From Patescibacteria group bacterium (lineage in GTDB: Bacteria > Patescibacteriota > Patescibacteriia > JACRDY01), in NCBI GenBank assembly GCA_041650515.1, contig JBAZLA010000001.1:146710-210709 (forward strand): a stretch of DNA of 64,000 nt, in the 5' to 3' direction. The first letter of the stretch is position 1. Every line of letters begins with the position of its first letter. The position numbers and the translations under genes are program-made. Below the pieces are notes generated by a model that had not been told where the DNA came from, made no database searches, and saw only the letters and a list, made by a program, of their open reading frames with translations. This document shows, in pieces, positions 2,937-54,043 of this stretch.

Positions 2937-4586
<1,650 letters not shown>

Positions 4587-5157
4587 TTAAATACTGATAA
4601 GTTGTCCGTACACTAACAACACCAGTTGCTAATGTTTACCCCGTAGAGTCTACGGGTTTAACTCTCTCAGTAGAGTTATAAGAGAAAATAAAGTTGAATA
4701 GATAGGTTACTTCGCACTTACGATTTACTATCACTTTTCGATTGTCAATGTTCCTTTTCTCACCTCTTAATTTTTTATCAAATTAAGAGACGAAAAAACA
4801 GTGCGGGCCAAATCAACGACTTCCACTGGGGAATGTCTACTCAGCCATCACTGTTTTTCCGTCTACTTTTCCCCTGTCAGGGGAAAGTTTAGATGAATTG
4901 TAATAATGTTTTTATGGAACTTTTTATGCCTTGCCTCGCCGGTGCCCTAAAAGGGCATAGGCGGGTTATTTTTAAAGCCCTCTCATTATATACCTTTGCT
5001 AGACCCTGTCAAGGGTGAGACAACAAGCCAATAATGCACAAATTATACCCAGTCAATTTATAACCTAAATAGTAAAATAACCATTGTCCAAACCCTTGAC
5101 TAAATTGATTGTCCGTGTTACAGTTACTAATCCATTTCTCACACCAAGGAGGGCACT

Positions 5158-5463
5158 ATGCCCAAAGAACGACCGAGTGTGTTGGCGTTCATCGCCTATC
5201 TGGCGGAACACCAAACGGAATTTCACCTGGGCACCTGGTACCAGGTAGGCAAACCAGGCGTCGATGCGCGCGAAAATGACCTACTCGTGGCCAACTGCCG
5301 CGACAAAGCCGAAGCGGAACACATAGCCGCCGACCGCGACGGATTCGAGGTCAAAGCCATCGTCGTCCTGGCCATGGACGGCTACGATGCGGCCCTGCAG
5401 CTGCATCTCGCGACCATGACCATGACGCTGATCTACATCGGCGTCGCTGACGAAACCGTCTAA
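5158..5463 (+). CDS. Hypothetical protein, GC-rich (~60% GC) island
   Basis: The 101-aa ORF has the ribosome-binding site aaggagggcactATG and a strong intrinsic terminator, aaagccacccccgtggctttttttt, directly downstream. Its composition is far above the ~45% flanks. Confidence 0.5.
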   Translation: MPKERPSVLAFIAYLAEHQTEFHLGTWYQVGKPGVDARENDLLVANCRDKAEAEHIAADRDGFEVKAIVVLAMDGYDAALQLHLATMTMTLIYIGVADETV

Positions 5464-6999: not shown

Positions 7000-7154
7000 A
7001 CGCTATAGTACTTAATACATAGTACACAGTACAGAGTAAATTGACCAGCCAGCAACATTTGGCTGATGTACTCTGTACTCAGTACTGTGTACTATTATAA
7101 AACAAAAACCGTCGGTTTGTCACCAACGGTCTTCGTTTTATTCAATGAACAATT

Positions 7155-40789: not shown

Positions 40790-40865
40790 TCTCAAACCAA
40801 AAACACCTCCCTCATCAGAAGGAGATGTCTTTTCCTTTGTCTTCGAGCTTATGCTTAGAGACAAA
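40790..40865 (+). repeat. 75-bp direct repeat, copy B, abutting tRNA-His
   Basis: See copy A. Confidence 0.7.
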
Positions 40866-40938
40866 GGTGACCGACGGGAATCGAACCCGTATAGCTGGTG
40901 CCACAGACCAGTGCACTAACCATTGTGCTACGGTCACC
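40866..40938 (-). tRNA. tRNA-His (anticodon GTG) with encoded G-1
   Basis: The reverse complement is G-GTGACCGTAGCACAATGGTTAGTGCACTGGTCTGTGGCACCAGCTATACGGGTTCGATTCCCGTCGGTCACC. The extra 5' G pairs with the discriminator C, which is the His identity element. The anticodon loop is CTGTGGC. Confidence 0.8.
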
Positions 40939-40984
40939 ATACATTAATTATTAATTACTAATTAATAATTGGTAACTGTTGTAA

Positions 40985-41264
40985 TCGCCCTCAGTAGGAA
41001 TCCCACCCCTACGGGTGGTGGCCCGTTAGGGCCAGAACCTACAAGAGAACAGTTGCTCTACTACTGGTTTCCAATATTCGCCCTCAGTAGGAATCCCACC
41101 CCTACGGGTGGTGGCCCGTTAGGGCCAGAACCTACAAGAGAACAGTTGCTCTACTACTGGTTTCCAATATTCGCCCTCAGTAGGAATCCCACCCCTACGG
41201 GTGGTGGCCCGTTAGGGCCAGAACCTACAAGAGAACAGTTGCTCTACTACTGGTTTCCAATATT
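40985..41264. repeat. Three tandem 93-bp units, each ending (tRNA orientation) in the 17-nt tRNA-Arg 3' terminus and containing a tRNA-3'-half-like segment with 32-nt double-hairpin insertion
   Basis: The units begin at 40985, 41079 and 41172 and are essentially identical. The next copy at 41265 is the genuine tRNA-Arg. The ORF-track 113-aa frame 40969..41310 is a repeat artefact. Confidence 0.8.
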
Positions 41265-41336
41265 CGCCCTCAGTAGGAATCGAACCTACATATCCAGCTT
41301 AGAAGGCTAGTGTTCTATCCATTGAACTATGAGGGC
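41265..41336 (-). tRNA. tRNA-Arg (anticodon TCT)
   Basis: The reverse complement GCCCTCATAGTTCAATGGATAGAACACTAGCCTTCTAAGCTGGATATGTAGGTTCGATTCCTACTGAGGGCG is a 72-nt cloverleaf. Confidence 0.8.
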
Positions 41337-41389
41337 TCAATTCGCACGAGTAAACCCAATTCTATCATATTTTTTTCAAAAATCAACCC

Positions 41390-42448
41390 CTAACTCTTTT
41401 TCCGCTGGCGACCATGAAAAGCCTTATAGACCTCACGCAAATGTTTATCGGTAATATGAGTATAAATTTGGGTTGTGGTGATGGAAGCATGGCCCAATAA
41501 CGACTGCACCGAACGGATATCAGCACCAGAAGTTAATAAATCAGTGGCAAAACTATGACGCAAAGTGTGCGGCGTAATCTTTTTGGTGATGCCGGCCAGC
41601 CGAGCGTACTTTTTGATCAATCGTTGCACTGACCGCGGCGTCAAAAAACTCACCTCCTCTACTCCTCTGGACTCTGGACTCGGGACTCGGGACTTATTTG
41701 CCCGATCATGACTAACAAAAATATAATCCGAACCATCCCGTCGAGTCGCCAAATAGCGTCGTAACCAAAATTTAGCTTGGTTAGAAATAAAAACCACTCG
41801 CGGTTTGTCACCCTTGCCCCGGACGGTAAATTCTTCTTTAGCTAGATTAATCTGATCTTTTTGAAGATGGACTAATTCTGAGACGCGCAGACCAGTCGAA
41901 AACAACATTTCTAATATGGCTTTGTCGCGGAGCGGAATAATATTGGCAATATAATCATTACCATCTTGATCAATCTCAACTTTATTAATCTGTAACGGCG
42001 CAGCTAAAAACCGTTCTAGATCGCTGCCTTCTAAATATTCAATGTGCCGTTCGGACTGCCTCGCTAGCTCAATTTTTTCTGGTGCCAAAGACCTAATATC
42101 GTTTTTGGCTAAATATTTAAGAAAAGAGCGCAAAGCAATCAGATGATAGTTCTGAGTGCTACTCTTGAGATTTTTACCATGATCATCAGTAGCTCGATTG
42201 AGCCAAAGCCGAAACTGACGGATCAGGCTCGAGTCGACATCTTCAATCTTAAAACTTTTGTTTTTACTTTTAGCCCAATTAAAAAACCGCTGTAAATAAA
42301 AATCATAATTACGAATCGTAGCTTGCGCTCGACCACGTTCGATCTCGAGATATTCGAGAAAATTAGTGACTAGGGGATTAGCTGACATAATTAAGAAAGC
42401 AAAAAAGCATACGGCCTCTCCGCCGAATCGGCGGATTGGCCTAAGCAA
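41390..42448 (-). CDS. Tyrosine site-specific recombinase/integrase (XerC/D-like)
   Basis: 352 aa with an N-terminal SAM-like domain. The catalytic C-terminus reads HTLRHSFATDLLTSGADIRSVQSLLGHASITTTQIYTHI (R...HxxR...Y). It is adjacent to tRNA-Arg. Confidence 0.8.
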   Translation of the reverse strand: MLRPIRRFGGEAVCFFAFLIMSANPLVTNFLEYLEIERGRAQATIRNYDFYLQRFFNWAKSKNKSFKIEDVDSSLIRQFRLWLNRATDDHGKNLKSSTQNYHLIALRSFLKYLAKNDIRSLAPEKIELARQSERHIEYLEGSDLERFLAAPLQINKVEIDQDGNDYIANIIPLRDKAILEMLFSTGLRVSELVHLQKDQINLAKEEFTVRGKGDKPRVVFISNQAKFWLRRYLATRRDGSDYIFVSHDRANKSRVPSPESRGVEEVSFLTPRSVQRLIKKYARLAGITKKITPHTLRHSFATDLLTSGADIRSVQSLLGHASITTTQIYTHITDKHLREVYKAFHGRQRKKS

Positions 42449-42601
42449 AAAAACAAATATTGTTTTTTTGTTTTCTTGTTTTCTTGATTTATTGCTTTCT
42501 CATTATATTTTACGACACTAAAAGAATAAAGGCAAATAAAAAAACCGCCCCAGCTCTCCTATAGCTACAAGCGGCGAATTTATTGTCTTTCCCTCCTGGG
42601 T

Positions 42602-43795
42602 TTAGAACTCCAAGCCGTGGATGCCCAGCACAGCCTCGTTGCCATCCAGCATCTCGCGGATCATGGCGTCGAGATGCGGTATCGTCTCCGACGCCAGGTC
42701 CAACACCGTAACCGCCGTCTGGCCATTACCTTGGTTGACCACGGCGCTGATATTGCCGCCGGCCTCGGCAACCTTGCTGGTCAAGAAGGCTAAGACCCCG
42801 GGTTGATCATGATGCAGCGCGGTCAACCGCTGCTTGACGTTTGCCGCTGGTGAGCTACCGGCGGACGGGAAGTTGACGCTGTTTCTGACGACACCCCAGT
42901 GCAACCATTCGTACAAAGTGTCACTGGCCATCTTAGCGCAACGATCTTCCGACTCTTGAGTCGAAGCGCCCAAGTGTGGTGTGCAAATCACACCCGGATG
43001 ACCGACCACGCCGGGTGTGGCAAAGTCGGTAATATAACACAGATTCTGGTCGGCATCCAACATCGCCACAATCGTCTTCTCATCAACCACCCCGGCACGA
43101 GAGAGATTGGCGATAAACGACCCGCCAAACGCCGACAATACCTTGGAACCCAACAGGCCCTTGGTAGCAGCGTTAAGAGGCACATGCACGGTCAAAATCG
43201 CCGCCTTCGCCGCCACTTCCTCGAGCGGAAGTAGCGTCACCCCGGGTACCAGGCGCAAAGCGTTGGCCGTCGTCAGCCCGGGGTCACAGGCGACCACCTG
43301 CATTCCCAAGGCCACGGCTTGGTTGGCCACCGCGATGCCTACCTGACCTAAGCCGACCACGCCGAGTGTTTGACCCCGCAATTCGCGACCGGCAAAGGCC
43401 TTCTTACCTTTTTCAACTTCTTTTTTCATCTCGTCGGCCGTCTTACCGGCCAAACCCGAGACGAATTGCAGCGCGGGTACGACCTTACGCAAGGCCATAC
43501 CGAGGAGAACGAACAACAGCTCGGCCACGCTTTGAGCGTTAGCCCCCGGCGCGTTAAACACCGGGATGCCCCGCTCGGTCGCCGCCGCAACCGGAATGTT
43601 GTCCGTGCCGCTGCCGGCGCGAGCAACGCCCTGTAAACTCGGATATAATCCGATATCCACGGGGGCGCTGCGCACCATAATGCCGACAACCCTTTCCAAC
43701 ACCATTTCCGGACCAGCGGTGACAAAATCACAGTTGCTACCCGACCAATCCGGTCTCCCCAATCCATTCAACAACAGAACTTGGCGCTCTTTCAT
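42602..43795 (-). CDS. D-isomer-specific 2-hydroxyacid dehydrogenase, SerA-like (with C-terminal ACT-like region), GC-rich (~60%)
   Basis: 397 aa with the NAD-binding motif GVVGLGQVGIAVANQAVALGMQVVACDP and a catalytic HLGAST-type region. Composition is far above the flanks. Confidence 0.7.
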   Translation of the reverse strand: MKERQVLLLNGLGRPDWSGSNCDFVTAGPEMVLERVVGIMVRSAPVDIGLYPSLQGVARAGSGTDNIPVAAATERGIPVFNAPGANAQSVAELLFVLLGMALRKVVPALQFVSGLAGKTADEMKKEVEKGKKAFAGRELRGQTLGVVGLGQVGIAVANQAVALGMQVVACDPGLTTANALRLVPGVTLLPLEEVAAKAAILTVHVPLNAATKGLLGSKVLSAFGGSFIANLSRAGVVDEKTIVAMLDADQNLCYITDFATPGVVGHPGVICTPHLGASTQESEDRCAKMASDTLYEWLHWGVVRNSVNFPSAGSSPAANVKQRLTALHHDQPGVLAFLTSKVAEAGGNISAVVNQGNGQTAVTVLDLASETIPHLDAMIREMLDGNEAVLGIHGLEF

Positions 43796-45193: not shown

Positions 45194-47527
45194 ATGTCCG
45201 AAATCAAAGAATTTTCTTTGGAAATCGCCGGCAAAGAATTAAAAGTTCAAGTCGGTAAACTAGCCATGCATACCAACGCTAGCTGCACCGTCCAATACGG
45301 CGATACGGTAGTTTTAGCAACTGCCGTCATGTCTCCCACCGCACGGGAAGATATTGATTACTTCCCGTTGATGGTCGATTATGAAGAAAAAATGTATGCC
45401 GCTGGCAAAATCAAAGGTAGCCGGTTTATCAAACGTGAAGGCCGACCAACTGACGAAGCTATTCTTAGCGGCCGAATGATCGATCGTGGCCTGCGACCAC
45501 TCTTTCCTGAGGAGCTAAGAAACGACGTTCAGACTGTTCTGACCGTGCTCTCGAGCGATGGTGAAAACGATCCTGATACCATCGCCATTACCGCTGCCTC
45601 GATTGCTCTGCATATCTCTAACATTCCTTGGAACGGCCCACTAGTCGGTATCCGCGTTGGTCAGATCGAGGGCGAGTGGGTTTTAAATCCCAGCTATGCC
45701 GCTCGAGAAAAATCTACTTGCGACATCGCTTTTTCGGTGACCGCCGATAAGGTAATGATGTTTGAAGCCACCGGTCAAGAAATCGCCGAAGAAACCTTTT
45801 TCGAAGCGGTCCAGTTTGGCCTCAAACATGGTAAAAAAGTGATTAAATTTATCGAAGAAATCCGCCAAGCCGTTGGCAAAGAAAAAGTCCCGCTAACCCA
45901 AATCAAAGAGGAAGCGGCAGTGGCAGAATTCCCTGGCGAAGACACTCCGGCCGAAGCGATCGAAGCGGAGAAAATCTACGAACAAGCCAAAGCGGAAACT
46001 GAACAATTTATTCTCCAAAATTTGGATCAATACTTGTTTGATAAACCCAAGGGCACCAAACGAGAACGCAAAGAAATTTTGGCCGAACTTAAGGCCAAAG
46101 TCGAAGCTTTCTTATTGGAAAAACAAGTTGGCAAAGACAAACGCAAAAAAATCCTCAAAGATTTTGACCTCTTCGTGGAAGCGCAGATCTCCAAGGCGAT
46201 CTTGGCCGCCGACCGGCGCGTCGATGGCCGCAAATTAGATGAGATCAGACCACTAGGCTGTGAGATCGGCCTCTTGCCGCGCACTCACGGCTCCGCCCTG
46301 TTTAATCGCGGTGAGACACAGATTCTCTCCACTGTCACTTTGGGCTCACCCGGCGATGAACAGTTGCTCGACTCAATGGAAGAAAGCGGCAAAAAACGCT
46401 ATATGCATCATTATAACGATGCGCCCTTTAGCTACGGCGAAGCCGGCCCCTTGCGTGGTCCAGGCCGTCGAGCGATTGGCCACGGCGCTTTAGCCGAAAA
46501 AGCTTTATTGCCAGTTCTACCAACTAAAGAAGATTTTCCTTATACTATCCGCGTTGTCTCCGAAGTGATGAGCTCTAACGGCTCATCCTCAATGGGTTCA
46601 ACCTGTGGCTCGTCATTGGCCCTAATGGATGCCGGCGTACCAATCAAAAAACATGTCGCCGGTATTGCGATGGGTCTAGCGACTGATAGCCAAAACAATT
46701 ACAAAGTTATTACCGACCTCCAGGATTTAGAAGATGGTCCTGGTGGTATGGACTTTAAGGTAGCCGGTACCCGTGATGGTATCACGGCTGTCCAGATGGA
46801 CACCAAAACCAATGGACTAACTTTAGAGATGATTGAAAAAGCCTTAGCCCAAGCCAAAAAGGCTCGGCTCCAGATTATCGACCTGATGGAAAAAACCATA
46901 CCAACACCACGACCCGACCTTTCGCCTTATGCGCCGCGAATTGTCTCCTTCCATATCGAACCAGATAAAATTCGCGAGGTGATCGGCCCCGGCGGTAAAG
47001 TGATTAACGAAATAATCGCCGCCACCGGCGTTGATATTGATATCGAAGATGACGGCCTAGTAATGATTACCGGCACCGACCCAGAAAAAACTCAGCAAGC
47101 TGTTGATTGGGTCAAAAATATTGTTCGCGAAGTCCAGGCCGGCGAAATATTTGAAGGCAAAGTCACCCGGCTGATGGACTTTGGTGCTTTTGTTGAAGTG
47201 TTGCCTGGCCAAGAAGGCTTGGTTCACATTTCCGAATTAGCCCAAACCAGAACCGAAAAAGTGACCGACGTCGTTAATATCGGCGATAAGGTTAAAGTAA
47301 TTGTTAAAGAAATTGACGACCAGGGCCGAATCAATCTCTCAATCAAACGACTCGATCCTAATTATAAGGATCAACCTCGGTCGAGCTATGGTGACCGTGG
47401 CGGTAACGATCGCGGCGGCCGCAGCGGCTACCGTGGTAATAACCGCAGTAACAGCCATAGCCACTACCAAAATGATAAACCCAGTCCAACCACTCCAGAC
47501 AAGAAAAAGCACTTCTGGGAAAAATAA
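45194..47527 (+). CDS. pnp: Polynucleotide phosphorylase (with RGG-rich C-terminal tail)
   Basis: 777 aa with two RNase PH domains, a KH domain (IGPGGKVINEI) and an S1 domain. It is downstream of rpsO. Confidence 0.9.
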   Translation: MSEIKEFSLEIAGKELKVQVGKLAMHTNASCTVQYGDTVVLATAVMSPTAREDIDYFPLMVDYEEKMYAAGKIKGSRFIKREGRPTDEAILSGRMIDRGLRPLFPEELRNDVQTVLTVLSSDGENDPDTIAITAASIALHISNIPWNGPLVGIRVGQIEGEWVLNPSYAAREKSTCDIAFSVTADKVMMFEATGQEIAEETFFEAVQFGLKHGKKVIKFIEEIRQAVGKEKVPLTQIKEEAAVAEFPGEDTPAEAIEAEKIYEQAKAETEQFILQNLDQYLFDKPKGTKRERKEILAELKAKVEAFLLEKQVGKDKRKKILKDFDLFVEAQISKAILAADRRVDGRKLDEIRPLGCEIGLLPRTHGSALFNRGETQILSTVTLGSPGDEQLLDSMEESGKKRYMHHYNDAPFSYGEAGPLRGPGRRAIGHGALAEKALLPVLPTKEDFPYTIRVVSEVMSSNGSSSMGSTCGSSLALMDAGVPIKKHVAGIAMGLATDSQNNYKVITDLQDLEDGPGGMDFKVAGTRDGITAVQMDTKTNGLTLEMIEKALAQAKKARLQIIDLMEKTIPTPRPDLSPYAPRIVSFHIEPDKIREVIGPGGKVINEIIAATGVDIDIEDDGLVMITGTDPEKTQQAVDWVKNIVREVQAGEIFEGKVTRLMDFGAFVEVLPGQEGLVHISELAQTRTEKVTDVVNIGDKVKVIVKEIDDQGRINLSIKRLDPNYKDQPRSSYGDRGGNDRGGRSGYRGNNRSNSHSHYQNDKPSPTTPDKKKHFWEK

Positions 47528-47580
47528 TACTAGTACTCAGTACCCAGTCCATAGTAATCTAGTTTCCCACTTCAATCATA

Positions 47581-47615
47581 ACACCCCGGTTATTTCAAAA
47601 ACTGGGGTGTTTGTT
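47581..47615 (+). terminator. Rho-independent terminator of pnp
   Basis: The stem acaccccggttatttcaaaaactggggtgt is followed by ttgtt. Confidence 0.55.
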
Positions 47616-47702
47616 ATCTGTGTACTATGTACTAGGTACTAGGTACTAACATTATAAAAAAAGCCACCCGTAGGTGACTAGCTGCTGTAGGCAAGACTTT
47701 AC

Positions 47703-48113
47703 TCACGCCGCGGGCAGCTTGATCTCGGCTCGGACGATCATCTCCAGGATTTGCCGGCCGATCGCCTGGTCGCCCTCGATGACCACCCTCTGGGCAGCCA
47801 ACGACATCGCAACCTGCCTGGTCGCCACTTCCGCCTCGCGCAACGGCTGCTCACGGCAGAAGCTGAGGAAGGTGGCCACATCCAGCTTAATCATCGCCCA
47901 AGTGGCTTCTCCATCGGTTACCGCCGTGGGCACAACGGCCTGCAACACTCGGGGCATCGACCCGGTCAGGTCAATCTCCCACTGACGATCAGGCCAAAAC
48001 CGCATGGTAATGTAGCTCTGGGGCAACCCGTGATCACCCTGCTGAAGCAATTGCTTCAATTGTTCAAAAGCCATCCCAATCGCCGCATCAGCCCGATCTT
48101 TAGCATGTGACAT
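47703..48113 (-). CDS. SCP2-like lipid-binding domain protein, GC-rich
   Basis: Start is at MSHAKDRAD after the ribosome-binding site ggagga. The C-terminus reads VVIEGDQAIGRQILEMI, an SCP2-type signature. The terminator gccacccgtaggtgac plus T7 lies downstream on the minus strand. Confidence 0.45.
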   Translation of the reverse strand: MSHAKDRADAAIGMAFEQLKQLLQQGDHGLPQSYITMRFWPDRQWEIDLTGSMPRVLQAVVPTAVTDGEATWAMIKLDVATFLSFCREQPLREAEVATRQVAMSLAAQRVVIEGDQAIGRQILEMIVRAEIKLPAA

Positions 48114-48248
48114 TGGTCCTCCTGGTGGTACTACCCTAATGACATACAAAACAACTTTATCCTGCACAGTAACAAACCAACCTAACGAAGTCAAGATAAA
48201 AAAATAAAAAAATCCCCGAAGGGATTGTGCTGCCGGCGATGAGTAAAA

Positions 48249-48626
48249 TCAACCCAACGGCAGAAGCTGAGCCTGGCTCAGCCATTCCAACAGCTGCCGG
48301 CCGGCCTTCTGATTACCCCGAATCTCAATCCAACCGGTTGCGAGCGCCGCCTCAATTTCTCTCGCACTGAGGTGTCCGCGAACCAAGTTGAGAAAACCCC
48401 CAGATGTCATATTGATCACAGTGACATCCGGTGATATCGGGGGAATGGCAAAACGCTGACTTACCGGGATCGCGACACCAGATGTATCGACGTCCCACCA
48501 CAGGGTAACCGAACCAGCCAGCAGATGAAACTCAAACCTTTTTCGAGGCAAAGTAACATTGCCCACTTGTAGCAACTTTCCCAGTGCCCCGAAAACACCA
48601 TTCACCAAGTCACGAAGCTCGGGCAT
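48249..48626 (-). CDS. SCP2-like lipid-binding domain protein (paralog of preceding), GC-rich
   Basis: 125 aa. The C-terminus reads WIEIRGNQKAGRQLLEWLSQ. Confidence 0.45.
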   Translation of the reverse strand: MPELRDLVNGVFGALGKLLQVGNVTLPRKRFEFHLLAGSVTLWWDVDTSGVAIPVSQRFAIPPISPDVTVINMTSGGFLNLVRGHLSAREIEAALATGWIEIRGNQKAGRQLLEWLSQAQLLPLG

Positions 48627-48751
48627 AATAACCTCCTTGTTTTTTGTATCCGAAACTAGTCTATCACTTTACTAGAATATTTAATTACAGTCAATAAAAT
48701 AAAAAAGTAACACTTACCCTATCAAATCACCCATATGCTATAATTAAACCA

Positions 48752-50158
48752 ATGAAAATAAATCTTAATTGGTCTAAATTGTTCCCGCCTGATCTTAGCC
48801 GAACCAAGCTCGGAATTTTTCTAATTCTTCTGATACTAGCTTTAGTTCTCGGTGGGGTTTTATATTGGCAGCACCAAATTAACCAGCAGGATAACTTAAT
48901 CAAACTCGTACCAGCCAACGCCAATCTTTACCTTCACTTTAATTACCAACCAAACCAGCTAACTGCCACCACCCAACTACTCTTTAATAATCTTTTTACT
49001 GACTTAGATGATCACTTTTTAGCCAATTCCCCGGCTAAGCTTTCCGCTAATTTACAAAGCTACTTAAACCGCGAGCTTGGACTAATTGCCACCCCAACTG
49101 GCCACTACCTGCTGATTGCAAAAATAAAAAATGGCCGAGAGCTAAAAGCCCAATATCCAGAATTAACTATTTTTAAAAACCATTATTTAATATTGGGCCA
49201 AGACTCGGCTAATAGTCTAGCCAGCGACCAAAACCAAAGCCTCGGTCAAGCTCAGCCTTGGCCAGAAAAATATTCCGCTGGCTTACTTCAAGCTTACTTT
49301 ACCACCCAATTTATAACCGGTTCTCTAACCGACCAACCAGCCAAAGACCTGCTCAGATACTATTTCGAACAAAACCAACAACAATATTTCCAATTAGCGC
49401 TAGATAACAACCTTAACCTGGAATTAGCAGCCAATGCCAACCTGGGTGAGCTCTCACCACTGTTTTTGACCAACCTCAACCAGAATACTATTTTAAGTCT
49501 AGCTCTACCCAGCCTTAGCACCTCAGTTAGTCAACTGGGTAGCTGGCTACAAAATTTTAACCCCAATTTGGCATCAACGTTGCTCCAAACCGGCCAAAGC
49601 TATCTCCAAGATTACAGAATTGATCTACCATCCTTATTCTCTTTAGCTAATCATCCAGCCCAGATAGTGGTTTTGCCAGATCAAAAGTATATTCTGATTC
49701 TAGAACAGACCACCCTGGATGAGCTGGAGATTCTAGATAACTTACTTAAGCAAGCGACTGCCCGCCGTTTTCCGCTAAGAATAGCCAAAAAACTACCAGA
49801 CGGGACGCCAATCACCGAGCTGGTAGCTGACCCAGCTAAATTTCAACTAATCGCCGAAGACGTAGCTGGCCAAACTATTAAGATAATTAAAGACGGTTCT
49901 GAGATCTGGGAATTGGCCTATTTTAGCAATAACAATCGTTTAATCATCAGCAACTCACTAACCGACCTAAGAGCTCTAGCTAGTCAACAAGCCACTATTA
50001 ACCTTAAAACGCTTTGCCCGCGCCTACCAGCTCATCAATTATTCCTCCAACCAGCTTACTGGTTGCAAAACCAACCAATTTTGTCTAAATATAGCCAAAT
50101 TTTACCTAATTTAACGTTAAATATTCAGGGTCAGATGCTACTCGGCTGCTTCTTCTAA
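48752..50158 (+). CDS. Hypothetical membrane-anchored protein (N-terminal TM, Q/N/L-rich)
   Basis: A 468-aa ORF. Confidence 0.4.
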   Translation: MKINLNWSKLFPPDLSRTKLGIFLILLILALVLGGVLYWQHQINQQDNLIKLVPANANLYLHFNYQPNQLTATTQLLFNNLFTDLDDHFLANSPAKLSANLQSYLNRELGLIATPTGHYLLIAKIKNGRELKAQYPELTIFKNHYLILGQDSANSLASDQNQSLGQAQPWPEKYSAGLLQAYFTTQFITGSLTDQPAKDLLRYYFEQNQQQYFQLALDNNLNLELAANANLGELSPLFLTNLNQNTILSLALPSLSTSVSQLGSWLQNFNPNLASTLLQTGQSYLQDYRIDLPSLFSLANHPAQIVVLPDQKYILILEQTTLDELEILDNLLKQATARRFPLRIAKKLPDGTPITELVADPAKFQLIAEDVAGQTIKIIKDGSEIWELAYFSNNNRLIISNSLTDLRALASQQATINLKTLCPRLPAHQLFLQPAYWLQNQPILSKYSQILPNLTLNIQGQMLLGCFF

Positions 50159-50283
50159 CTAACAGCTGTGGACAAGTTGTTAACTTTCTGATTTTAAATT
50201 GTTATTTTTCTTTGTTAATAAAAAAGTAATCCACAGTTTTTTTAGCTAAATTTAAACAAAAAATATTAAATGTTGACATAGTT

Positions 50284-50312
50284 GATAGGGTGTCAAATTT
50301 ATGATATACTAA
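50284..50312 (+). promoter_or_regulatory. Sigma70-like promoter (TTGATA-17-TATACT)
   Basis: The sequence is ttgatagggtgtcaaatttatgatatact. Confidence 0.4.
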
Positions 50313-50319
50313 TAGTAGA

Positions 50320-50740
50320 TAACTTTTGTTCTTTCTAATCTTTTAGGGAAATGAACCGAATTGAGTTTGTTATTGGATGATTCGACAACAAATCAATCCT
50401 GAGTCCGCCTATGGCAGACGAAGGATCTAGTTGGGTTTATTTCTCTCTCACCCACTCGGTCTTTTTGGAGGCCGCAACCCTCCGCTAAAACAAAAAACAA
50501 AAACGGGCTACACCCTAAACCAGTCACTAGCCCAGACCAGGTGAGTGAGCGACGCGTAACTCAGTTGCAAGTAACGCCCAACGACCTAGAGGTTAAGTTC
50601 TATCCTAGCCCTATAAAAAAGGGCTTAGATAGCGGACCTGTGGGTCCTGTGGGGCGTCTAAAGTGCCTACTATTTATAAAATATCTCATCCAGAGTGGTG
50701 AGGGGGCGCTTCGGCGCCCCCTCTTTTTTTACTTTAAATT
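50320..50740 (+). ncRNA. Candidate ncRNA (~420 nt) bounded by promoter and strong terminator; class unknown
   Basis: No convincing ORF. The listed 81-aa ORF reads through the terminator. A strong terminator, gagggggcgcttcggcgccccctc plus T7, lies at 50700-50737. Internal hairpins are present, including atcctgagtccgcc...ggcagacgaaggat. Confidence 0.3.
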
Positions 50741-50924
50741 AGTACATAGTACTCAGCACCCAGTACACAGAAAAATATTAATCTAATAGCCTAACTAGTT
50801 AATTTACTTCCTAAAGTACTGGGTACTAGGTACTGGGTACTAGTTAATAATTGACAAAACCAATAAATTTGAGATAATGGGACAAACATTATCGAGGAGG
50901 GCTTTTTATTTAGGAATAATTGCT

Positions 50925-53680: not shown

Positions 53681-54043
53681 ATGAAGGAAAATATTATCCA
53701 ACAAAAAAGCTACGTCTTTGCCTTGAGGATTATTAAATTATATGGATTCTTAGTTGAAAAACAGAGAGAGTTTGTTCTATCAAAACAAATTTTAAGATGC
53801 GGCACGTCGGTTGAAGCTAATATTGAGGAAGCAATTGGCGGTCAATCTAAAAAAGATTTCATTTTTAAAGTATCTATTGCTTATAAAGAAGCCAGGGAAA
53901 CTCATTATTGGATCAGACTTTTATATGATTCCGGTTTTTTGATTAAAAAACAATTCGGGTCGTTAATAGCAGACTGCGAAGTGTTAACTAAAATCACTGG
54001 TCGAATCCAAAAAACGTCTAAAGCTAAAGATTTTAATTCTTAA
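53681..54043 (+). CDS. Four-helix-bundle protein ('23S rRNA intervening-sequence protein' family, PF05635-like)
   Basis: 120 aa. The pattern SYVFALRIIKLY...LRCGTSVEANIEEA...SKKDFIFKVSIAYKEARETHYWIRLL is typical of the family. It is flanked by inverted CGAATTAC-type repeats. Confidence 0.7.
   Translation: MKENIIQQKSYVFALRIIKLYGFLVEKQREFVLSKQILRCGTSVEANIEEAIGGQSKKDFIFKVSIAYKEARETHYWIRLLYDSGFLIKKQFGSLIADCEVLTKITGRIQKTSKAKDFNS

Follow-up and report, generated by a model that had tools for sequence, protein, structure and literature searches.

The SCP2 domain (PF02036), which occurs in human SCP2 and in stand-alone bacterial proteins of about 95-110 amino acids, binds lipids and quinone intermediates, as do UbiJ and UbiT, accessory factors of ubiquinone biosynthesis in Escherichia coli whose very divergent SCP2 domains bind hydrophobic intermediates (PMC6747719). 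[quoted passage not shown] In this context we analysed a 64,000-nucleotide stretch of DNA from a Patescibacteria metagenome-assembled genome, referred to as the window, in which an initial annotation had described two small neighbouring genes, here termed geneA and geneB, as tandem SCP2-like paralogs within a GC-rich island, suggestive of an acquired capacity for lipid handling.

The products of geneA and geneB are likewise stand-alone and similar in size to such proteins (all within about 95-135 amino acids), their models have the same predicted order of secondary-structure elements as the SCP2 domain, and they show a collinear, sub-threshold match to the domain that is best in the C-terminal half (D-V-T-V-x-M...FL.L..G...A...G.I.I.G....G..LL..L). 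However, geneB reaches 8.3 bits with a home-made SCP2 hidden Markov model (HMM) and the pair has no Pfam match, versus 64-81 bits for control SCP2 proteins, and no structural match was obtained from the available models. On a thin SCP2 profile the N-terminal domain of UbiJ scores 32.3, not far above the 21-27 of geneB, but both Ubi proteins clearly match PF02036 (UbiJ at 81 and UbiT at 71.5 bits) and belong to ubi operons, whereas the flanking region examined around our pair has no ubi gene as a neighbour. Likewise, the plasmid SCP2 genes examined adjoin thioesterase, Rieske, AMP-binding or hydrolase genes, whereas our pair lies between pnp and a membrane-protein gene. The other described situation that comes close is that of the lineage-specific orphan genes found in variable spots of Patescibacteria genomes, with which the pair shares its restriction to one organism, its lack of homologs, and a spacer that holds unrelated open reading frames (ORFs) in the nearest relatives. 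Unlike such orphan genes, geneA and geneB form a diverged paralog pair, are compositionally foreign (GC content at third codon positions, GC3, up to 0.72), and carry canonical Shine-Dalgarno sites of a kind rare in the host.

We propose that geneA and geneB are a horizontally acquired, paralogous pair of orphan genes whose products may adopt an SCP2-like fold, a statement to which, taken as a whole, we assign a probability of about 0.45. That they are real, acquired and paralogous orphan genes, whatever their fold, is highly probable; the SCP2-like fold itself stands at roughly even odds; and membership in the SCP2 sequence family is not supported.

A paralogous pair of orphan genes in the pnp-p468 spacer

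The two genes are minus-strand ORFs within the spacer between pnp (45194-47527, plus strand) and the gene for a conserved uncharacterised protein of 468 amino acids, p468 (48752-50158, plus strand), whose N-terminal hydrophobic stretch resembles a membrane helix. geneA (47703..48113; NCBI WC480_00975) encodes 136 amino acids from its ATG according to both the ORF list and the ENA gene call, with a predicted isoelectric point (pI) of 5.4, a GC content of 59.6% and a GC3 of 0.72. The ORF list gives 125 amino acids for geneB (48249..48626; NCBI WC480_00980), which has a pI of 8.3, a GC content of 54.0% and a GC3 of 0.56. The sizes of 137 and 125 amino acids given previously thus hold for geneB, and both ORFs are where they had been placed, but geneA is to be read as 136 residues. 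NCBI annotates geneA as a 154-amino acid protein, a form that is less plausible than the 136-amino acid form of the ENA gene caller, as its start lies upstream of the ribosome-binding site.

Both geneA and geneB are, with high confidence, real genes. They are annotated by two gene callers (NCBI and ENA), and a BLASTP comparison of their products gives 25% identity over 124 columns with an expectation value (E) of 2e-9, or 30% identity when aligned with MAFFT. Nucleotide identity over 117 aligned codons is 0.43, 0.62 and 0.37 at codon positions 1, 2 and 3, respectively, where composition alone would give ~0.27, and this order of positions, 2 > 1 > 3, implies selection on the encoded protein. 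In geneA and geneB alike, GC3 exceeds GC1, which in turn exceeds GC2. The shared C-terminal motif reported before is present in both proteins, VVIEGDQAIGRQILE in geneA and IEIRGNQKAGRQLLE in geneB, although the regular expression first written for it was slightly garbled and is better given as I-x-G-[DN]-Q-x-x-G-R-Q-[IL]-L-E.

Each gene comes with its own expression signals, all on the minus strand. A Shine-Dalgarno sequence, AGGAGGA, lies 4 nt before the geneA ATG (48117..48123), and another, AAGGAGGT, lies 5 nt before the geneB ATG (48631..48638), so that the ggagga site initially ascribed to both genes is found before geneA, but not before geneB. The hairpin CACC-TACG-GGTG, proposed as a terminator, is indeed present downstream of geneA as AGTCACC-TACG-GGTGGCT followed by a T-run (47652..47679, with positions 47679..47662 also given), and a second terminator-like hairpin, AATCCCTTCGGGGATT, also followed by a T-run, was found 3' of geneB (48201..48226, with positions 48226..48211 also given). 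Since each gene has its own terminator-like hairpin and T-run, we take geneA and geneB to be two separate transcription units rather than an operon. Upstream of geneB there are two overlapping matches to the sigma-70 promoter consensus, TTGACT-17-TAAAGT and TTGATA-18-TATTTT (48666..48725), which are promoter-like as consensus matches only. The N-terminus of neither protein has an obvious hydrophobic stretch, as judged by eye, and because of this both are probably cytoplasmic.

Searches for homologs returned little beyond the pair itself. In a word-indexed search of 5.8 billion clusters each protein matched itself alone, and a two-sequence profile, run exhaustively with HMMER against 1.84 billion representatives, recovered the two proteins plus one spurious match. 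The latter, P0003, a protein of 1239 amino acids with four internal repeats that by eye looks like a fish immunoglobulin receptor, was rejected, its E-value stemming from four copies of LAGSITLLPNLQWDVDNT. Both proteins had zero matches in Pfam and NCBIfam, with Pfam remaining silent at E<=1 and even at E<=10. Among Protein Data Bank (PDB) sequences, neither protein by itself nor the profile had a meaningful match, and a 52-residue match to FKBP (E=0.026) was discarded. No credible match to either protein was found in PHROGs, and none at all by tblastn against plasmids and phages or by scanning IMG/VR. PADLOC gave one weak match for geneA, PDC-M13A (E=0.011, 14 bits, 28 residues), and none for geneB. 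An anti-phage defence system or a toxin-antitoxin pair is not supported, as this weak match was all that PADLOC offered and the paralogs are split by a terminator and form no operon. An RNA explanation of the region was likewise dropped after an Rfam search without any RNA family. When metagenomes were scanned with p468 for an empty site or for relatives nearer than these, a single weak locus came up, and it was irrelevant.

Comparison with related genomes is consistent with acquisition. The closest polynucleotide phosphorylase (PNPase) relatives of the host belong to Falkowbacteria- and Magasanikbacteria-type genomes, at <=76% identity, and 80 loci were retrieved through this protein. The order rpsO-NYN-pnp-p468-dksA-lspA is conserved among these relatives, and in the pnp loci no relative of geneA or geneB was found, either by tblastn or with an HMM of the pair. 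In 12/18 relatives with a recognisable p468 homolog, the latter starts no more than about 220 nt from the pnp stop, versus a gap of 1.2 kb here, the content of which is unique to this genome among the compared loci. In the closest clade (L002, L003, L005, L006, L007 and L012) the same gap is filled by unrelated ORFs, 0.6-2.6 kb in length, and because of this we regard the pnp-p468 junction as a lineage-specific variable spot.

Composition points in the same direction. The GC content of the window is 43.7%, and that of the flanks and the inter-gene spacer 27-41% (40.7% for the spacer). The initial annotation had reported a block of ~58% GC, and both coding sequences are in fact GC-rich, but the block at 47650-48650 has 53.3% GC overall, with AT-rich, host-like spacers around and between the genes. 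Against a mean GC3 of 0.43 for the genes of the window (standard deviation 0.09), geneA is an outlier by 3.3 standard deviations and geneB by 1.4. Moreover, GGAGG occurs at a suitable distance before just four ORF starts in the 64 kb, namely those at 5158 and 34816 and those of geneA and geneB; the pair carries a translation signal seldom used by the host, where Shine-Dalgarno-led initiation seems to be rare. Thus, atypical composition, host-rare Shine-Dalgarno sites and absence from 80 related loci support an acquired island, as first suggested; rather than occurring at this locus in all relatives with native composition, the genes are missing from those loci and atypical in GC, and they are probably foreign to the host.

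Several repeated elements were observed in and around the pair. An exact 15-nt direct repeat, ACGGCAGAAGCTGAG, occurs at 47853-47867 in geneA and at 48257-48271 in the 3' end of geneB, with a chance expectation in the window of about 0.03 matches. It covers codons 83-87 of geneA, where an indel separates geneA from geneB, and its reading frame differs between the genes; recombination or gene conversion could have left it as a scar. The left boundary of the insertion is marked by the pnp terminator, nested in a 33-nt inverted repeat of GTACTNG heptads (47524..47655, plus strand). This is a copy of a repeated palindromic intergenic element with arms of such heptads (e.g. GTACTAGGTACTAGGTAC), located at 7008-7094, 47524-47655 and 50740-50847, the last two of which bracket the geneA-geneB-p468 segment. 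The heptad pattern has 6-7 matches, versus about 0.01-0.04 expected; the copy after pnp has a predicted RNA fold of -50.1 kcal/mol (z=-7.4), and the copy before the dksA-like gene has z=-7.2. It looks like a repetitive extragenic palindromic (REP) or miniature inverted-repeat transposable element (MITE) of the host genome, outside the acquired cargo. Overlapping this element there is an 11-of-14 direct repeat, GGTACTAACATTAT / GGTACTACCCTAAT, at 47642-47655 and 48127-48140, i.e. 485 nt apart and around the geneA unit, which could be a mark of cassette insertion or duplication, or due to chance.

Comparison with the SCP2 domain

To compare the pair with the SCP2 domain at the level of profiles we used hhalign and home-made SCP2 profiles. 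A vertebrate-only profile, built from human SCP2, gave P=0.27 and was abandoned as too narrow, and for this reason plasmid SCP2 proteins and E. coli UbiJ and UbiT were added. The resulting profile of 15 sequences includes six SCP2s from vertebrates, six from bacterial plasmids, the N-terminal domain of UbiJ and the core of UbiT. Against this profile geneB scored 26.2 (P=5e-4, probability 31%, sub-threshold), the two-sequence profile, A1, scored 23.6 (P=0.002, probability 13.5%), and geneA scored 14.1 (P=0.11, probability 0.5%). In leave-one-out controls, the N-terminal domain of UbiJ scored 32.3 (P=3e-5, probability 73%) and the core of UbiT 52.4 (P=3.6e-9, probability 96%), so that geneB falls below UbiJ, the weakest true member tested. 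With HMMER filters off, the home-made SCP2 HMM gave geneB its 8.3 bits at a per-comparison E of 1.3e-4, and geneA 3.7 bits.

The score of geneB nonetheless exceeds all 426 null comparisons, whose maxima were 18.4 for 300 column shuffles of A1, 17.9 for 100 real protein segments of 130 amino acids against the SCP2 profile, and 17.2 for 26 decoy families against geneB; the same decoys reached 21.9 against A1. The hhalign alignment places residues 65-121 of geneB against profile positions 65-117, in the register first proposed, and when the settings are relaxed its collinearity extends to residues 1-122. The aligned blocks of geneB and SCP2 are RFEFHLL/IFAFKVK, LWWDVD/TWVVDV, VTVINM/CTITMA, FLNLVRG/FLALMTG and WIEIRGNQKAGRQLLEWL/KLKITGNMGLAMKLQNL. 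The C-terminus of geneA follows the same register.

AlphaFold2 gave a predicted local distance difference test score (pLDDT) of 43 for geneB alone, and, in one of five models, a pLDDT of 67 and a predicted template modelling score (pTM) of 0.61 for geneA with the two-sequence alignment. The DSSP strings of these two weak models begin with a helix and three or four strands, continue with two helices and end in a strand and a helix, which is the order of elements in the human and rabbit SCP2 structures. An SCP2 domain is expected to have an alpha/beta fold in which a five-stranded sheet and helices surround a hydrophobic tunnel.

Several results weigh against our proposal, and they concern both of its parts. 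PF02036 and its clan relatives (gathering score of PF02036, 21.3 bits) do not match geneA or geneB even at E<=10, and five control SCP2 proteins, UbiJ and UbiT included, give the 64-81 bits mentioned above on the same model. The match of geneA alone to the SCP2 profile is not significant, and the A1 score is barely above the best decoy. The P-value of hhalign overstates significance, because the choice of SCP2 followed inspection of the sequence, and for geneB it would equal an E of about 10 if all of Pfam were searched. With Foldseek, both weak models found nothing in the PDB better than E=1.9 and a template modelling (TM) score of 0.36. Solved SCP2 structures should be present in the PDB. 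The SCP2 identity put forward by the initial annotation therefore failed as a matter of family assignment in Pfam and NCBIfam, leaving the sub-threshold hhalign match of geneB. As for the locus, the neighbours typical of SCP2 genes (thiolase, thioesterase, acyl-CoA and Ubi genes) are absent beside the pair, although fusion with or proximity to genes of lipid or quinone metabolism is common rather than obligatory for SCP2, and nothing in its contents is linked to lipid metabolism. Regarding acquisition, the k-mer analysis that had been suggested as a check on the island did not flag it, the block being unremarkable in tetranucleotide distance over 1-kb windows (z about 1.2-1.5), which speaks against a classical island; no integrase, transposase or tRNA and no convincing flanking repeat adjoin the pair; and no donor lineage was identified in protein clusters, IMG/VR, phages or plasmids.

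Weighing of the alternatives and implications

Under the reading that we favour, an acquired pair would have been inserted into a normally short pnp-p468 spacer, with each gene as its own transcription unit for a small alpha/beta protein. Each protein would fold as an SCP2-like box of helix, four strands, two helices, strand and helix, and the conserved C-terminal strand-helix motif would be the counterpart of the SCP2 element 'GKLKIxGdmxLAxKLxxL'. By analogy with known SCP2 proteins, they may bind and shuttle a hydrophobic ligand (a lipid, an acyl chain or an isoprenoid) non-enzymatically, within a tunnel that the C-terminal strand-helix would close if the fold is indeed SCP2-like. The nature of the ligand is speculative, and so is any involvement in obtaining lipids from a host. 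Going by the cited passages on CPR bacteria (PMC7242380), the handling of scavenged lipids would fit organisms deficient in lipid synthesis. The more ambitious version, in which geneA and geneB represent an extremely divergent new branch within the SCP2 fold, limited to a single lineage of Patescibacteria, derived from a GC-rich donor and providing one acidic and one basic soluble carrier to move host-derived lipids in a bacterium that cannot make them itself, is unlikely.

The most serious alternative, which we judge quite possible though somewhat short of an even chance, keeps the genes as real and acquired but makes their fold and function unrelated to SCP2, as accessory cargo of an unrecognised mobile element or phage, or as an interaction or immunity-type protein, with the C-terminal likeness being a chance match between amphipathic strand-helix segments. 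The absence of an SCP2 match in Pfam, NCBIfam and PDB sequences and by Foldseek, together with low hhalign probabilities of 13-31%, is what such an explanation predicts, and it would also suit a hotspot where relatives have unrelated lineage-specific ORFs and where each gene is cassette-like, with an independent ribosome-binding site and terminator. It does not readily account for a geneB score above every null comparison, nor for a collinear alignment with the predicted secondary-structure elements in register; and cargo of a mobile element, in particular, is at odds with the lack of an adjoining integrase or transposase and of any significant match in PHROGs, in IMG/VR or among the collections of phages and plasmids, PADLOC giving one weak match for geneA (PDC-M13A, E=0.011).

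Two further explanations deny the pair a function or a place in this genome. It is rather improbable that the ORFs are decaying, non-functional foreign remnants that survive because their insertion was recent: although they are orphans known from a single organism, with no functional annotation or conserved partners and with an odd exact repeat common to both genes out of frame, both reading frames have stayed intact despite divergence to ~30% identity, the excess of conservation at second codon positions indicates selection at the protein level, strong ribosome-binding sites and terminators have been kept in both, and the motif is conserved between the paralogs. A chimeric assembly, in which the GC-rich block comes from reads of another organism, would explain the sharp change in composition and the lack of these genes in every relative, and yet it is highly improbable, as the genes lie deep within a 472-kb ENA contig and again on a 287-kb NCBI contig, the GC-rich parts coincide exactly with the coding sequences, while spacers, promoter-like sites and terminators are as AT-rich as the host, and there are other gene-sized GC-rich segments in the window.

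If both the SCP2-like fold and lipid binding were to hold, the pair would offer a testable candidate for the handling of scavenged lipids in a lipid-auxotrophic, ultrasmall bacterium, and it would imply that tiny, self-contained gene cassettes can bring such a capacity with them. If they are not confirmed, geneA and geneB would be a further example of the abundant orphan genes in variable inter-gene spots of such genomes, and their main use would be as a marker of the recombination hotspot downstream of pnp.

Other elements of the window

Apart from p468, which is an uncharacterised membrane protein, the genes that neighbour the pair are pnp, NYN, rpsO, a dksA-like gene and lspA. Between p468 and the dksA-like gene there is a 720-nt stretch free of genes (50159-50876), with a core at about 50316-50735 on the plus strand and a promoter-like TTGATA-17-TATACT with TG at 50282-50310. 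Its terminator, GAGGGGGCGC-TTCG-GCGCCCCCTC plus T7 (50700-50730), is very strong. The unit of roughly 420 nt folds at -151 kcal/mol (z=-6.8), and in L003, the nearest relative, it shows partial conservation at the corresponding position (77% over 89 nt). It matches no Rfam family, tRNA or tmRNA, and we consider it a candidate for a novel structured RNA.

A probable second island (40865-43795) is made up of genes for tRNA-His and tRNA-Arg, one for a tyrosine recombinase/integrase (41390-42448) and a GC-rich one for a 2-hydroxyacid dehydrogenase (42602-43795). With a GC content of 58.8% and a GC3 of 0.69, the dehydrogenase gene deviates more in tetranucleotide composition than anything else in the window (z=4.8), and none of the 80 related loci carries a counterpart.

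The match to 16S rRNA at 2937-4590 (minus strand) is 1654 nt long, versus a model of 1533 positions, which corresponds to an insertion of about 120 nt. Such insertions have often been reported for rRNAs of the CPR. A 133-amino acid ORF at 3441-3842, inside the 16S rRNA, is presumably spurious. Lastly, the product of a free-standing gene at 53681-54043, 120 amino acids long, belongs to PF05635 (E=2e-26), the family named '23S rRNA intervening-sequence protein'.
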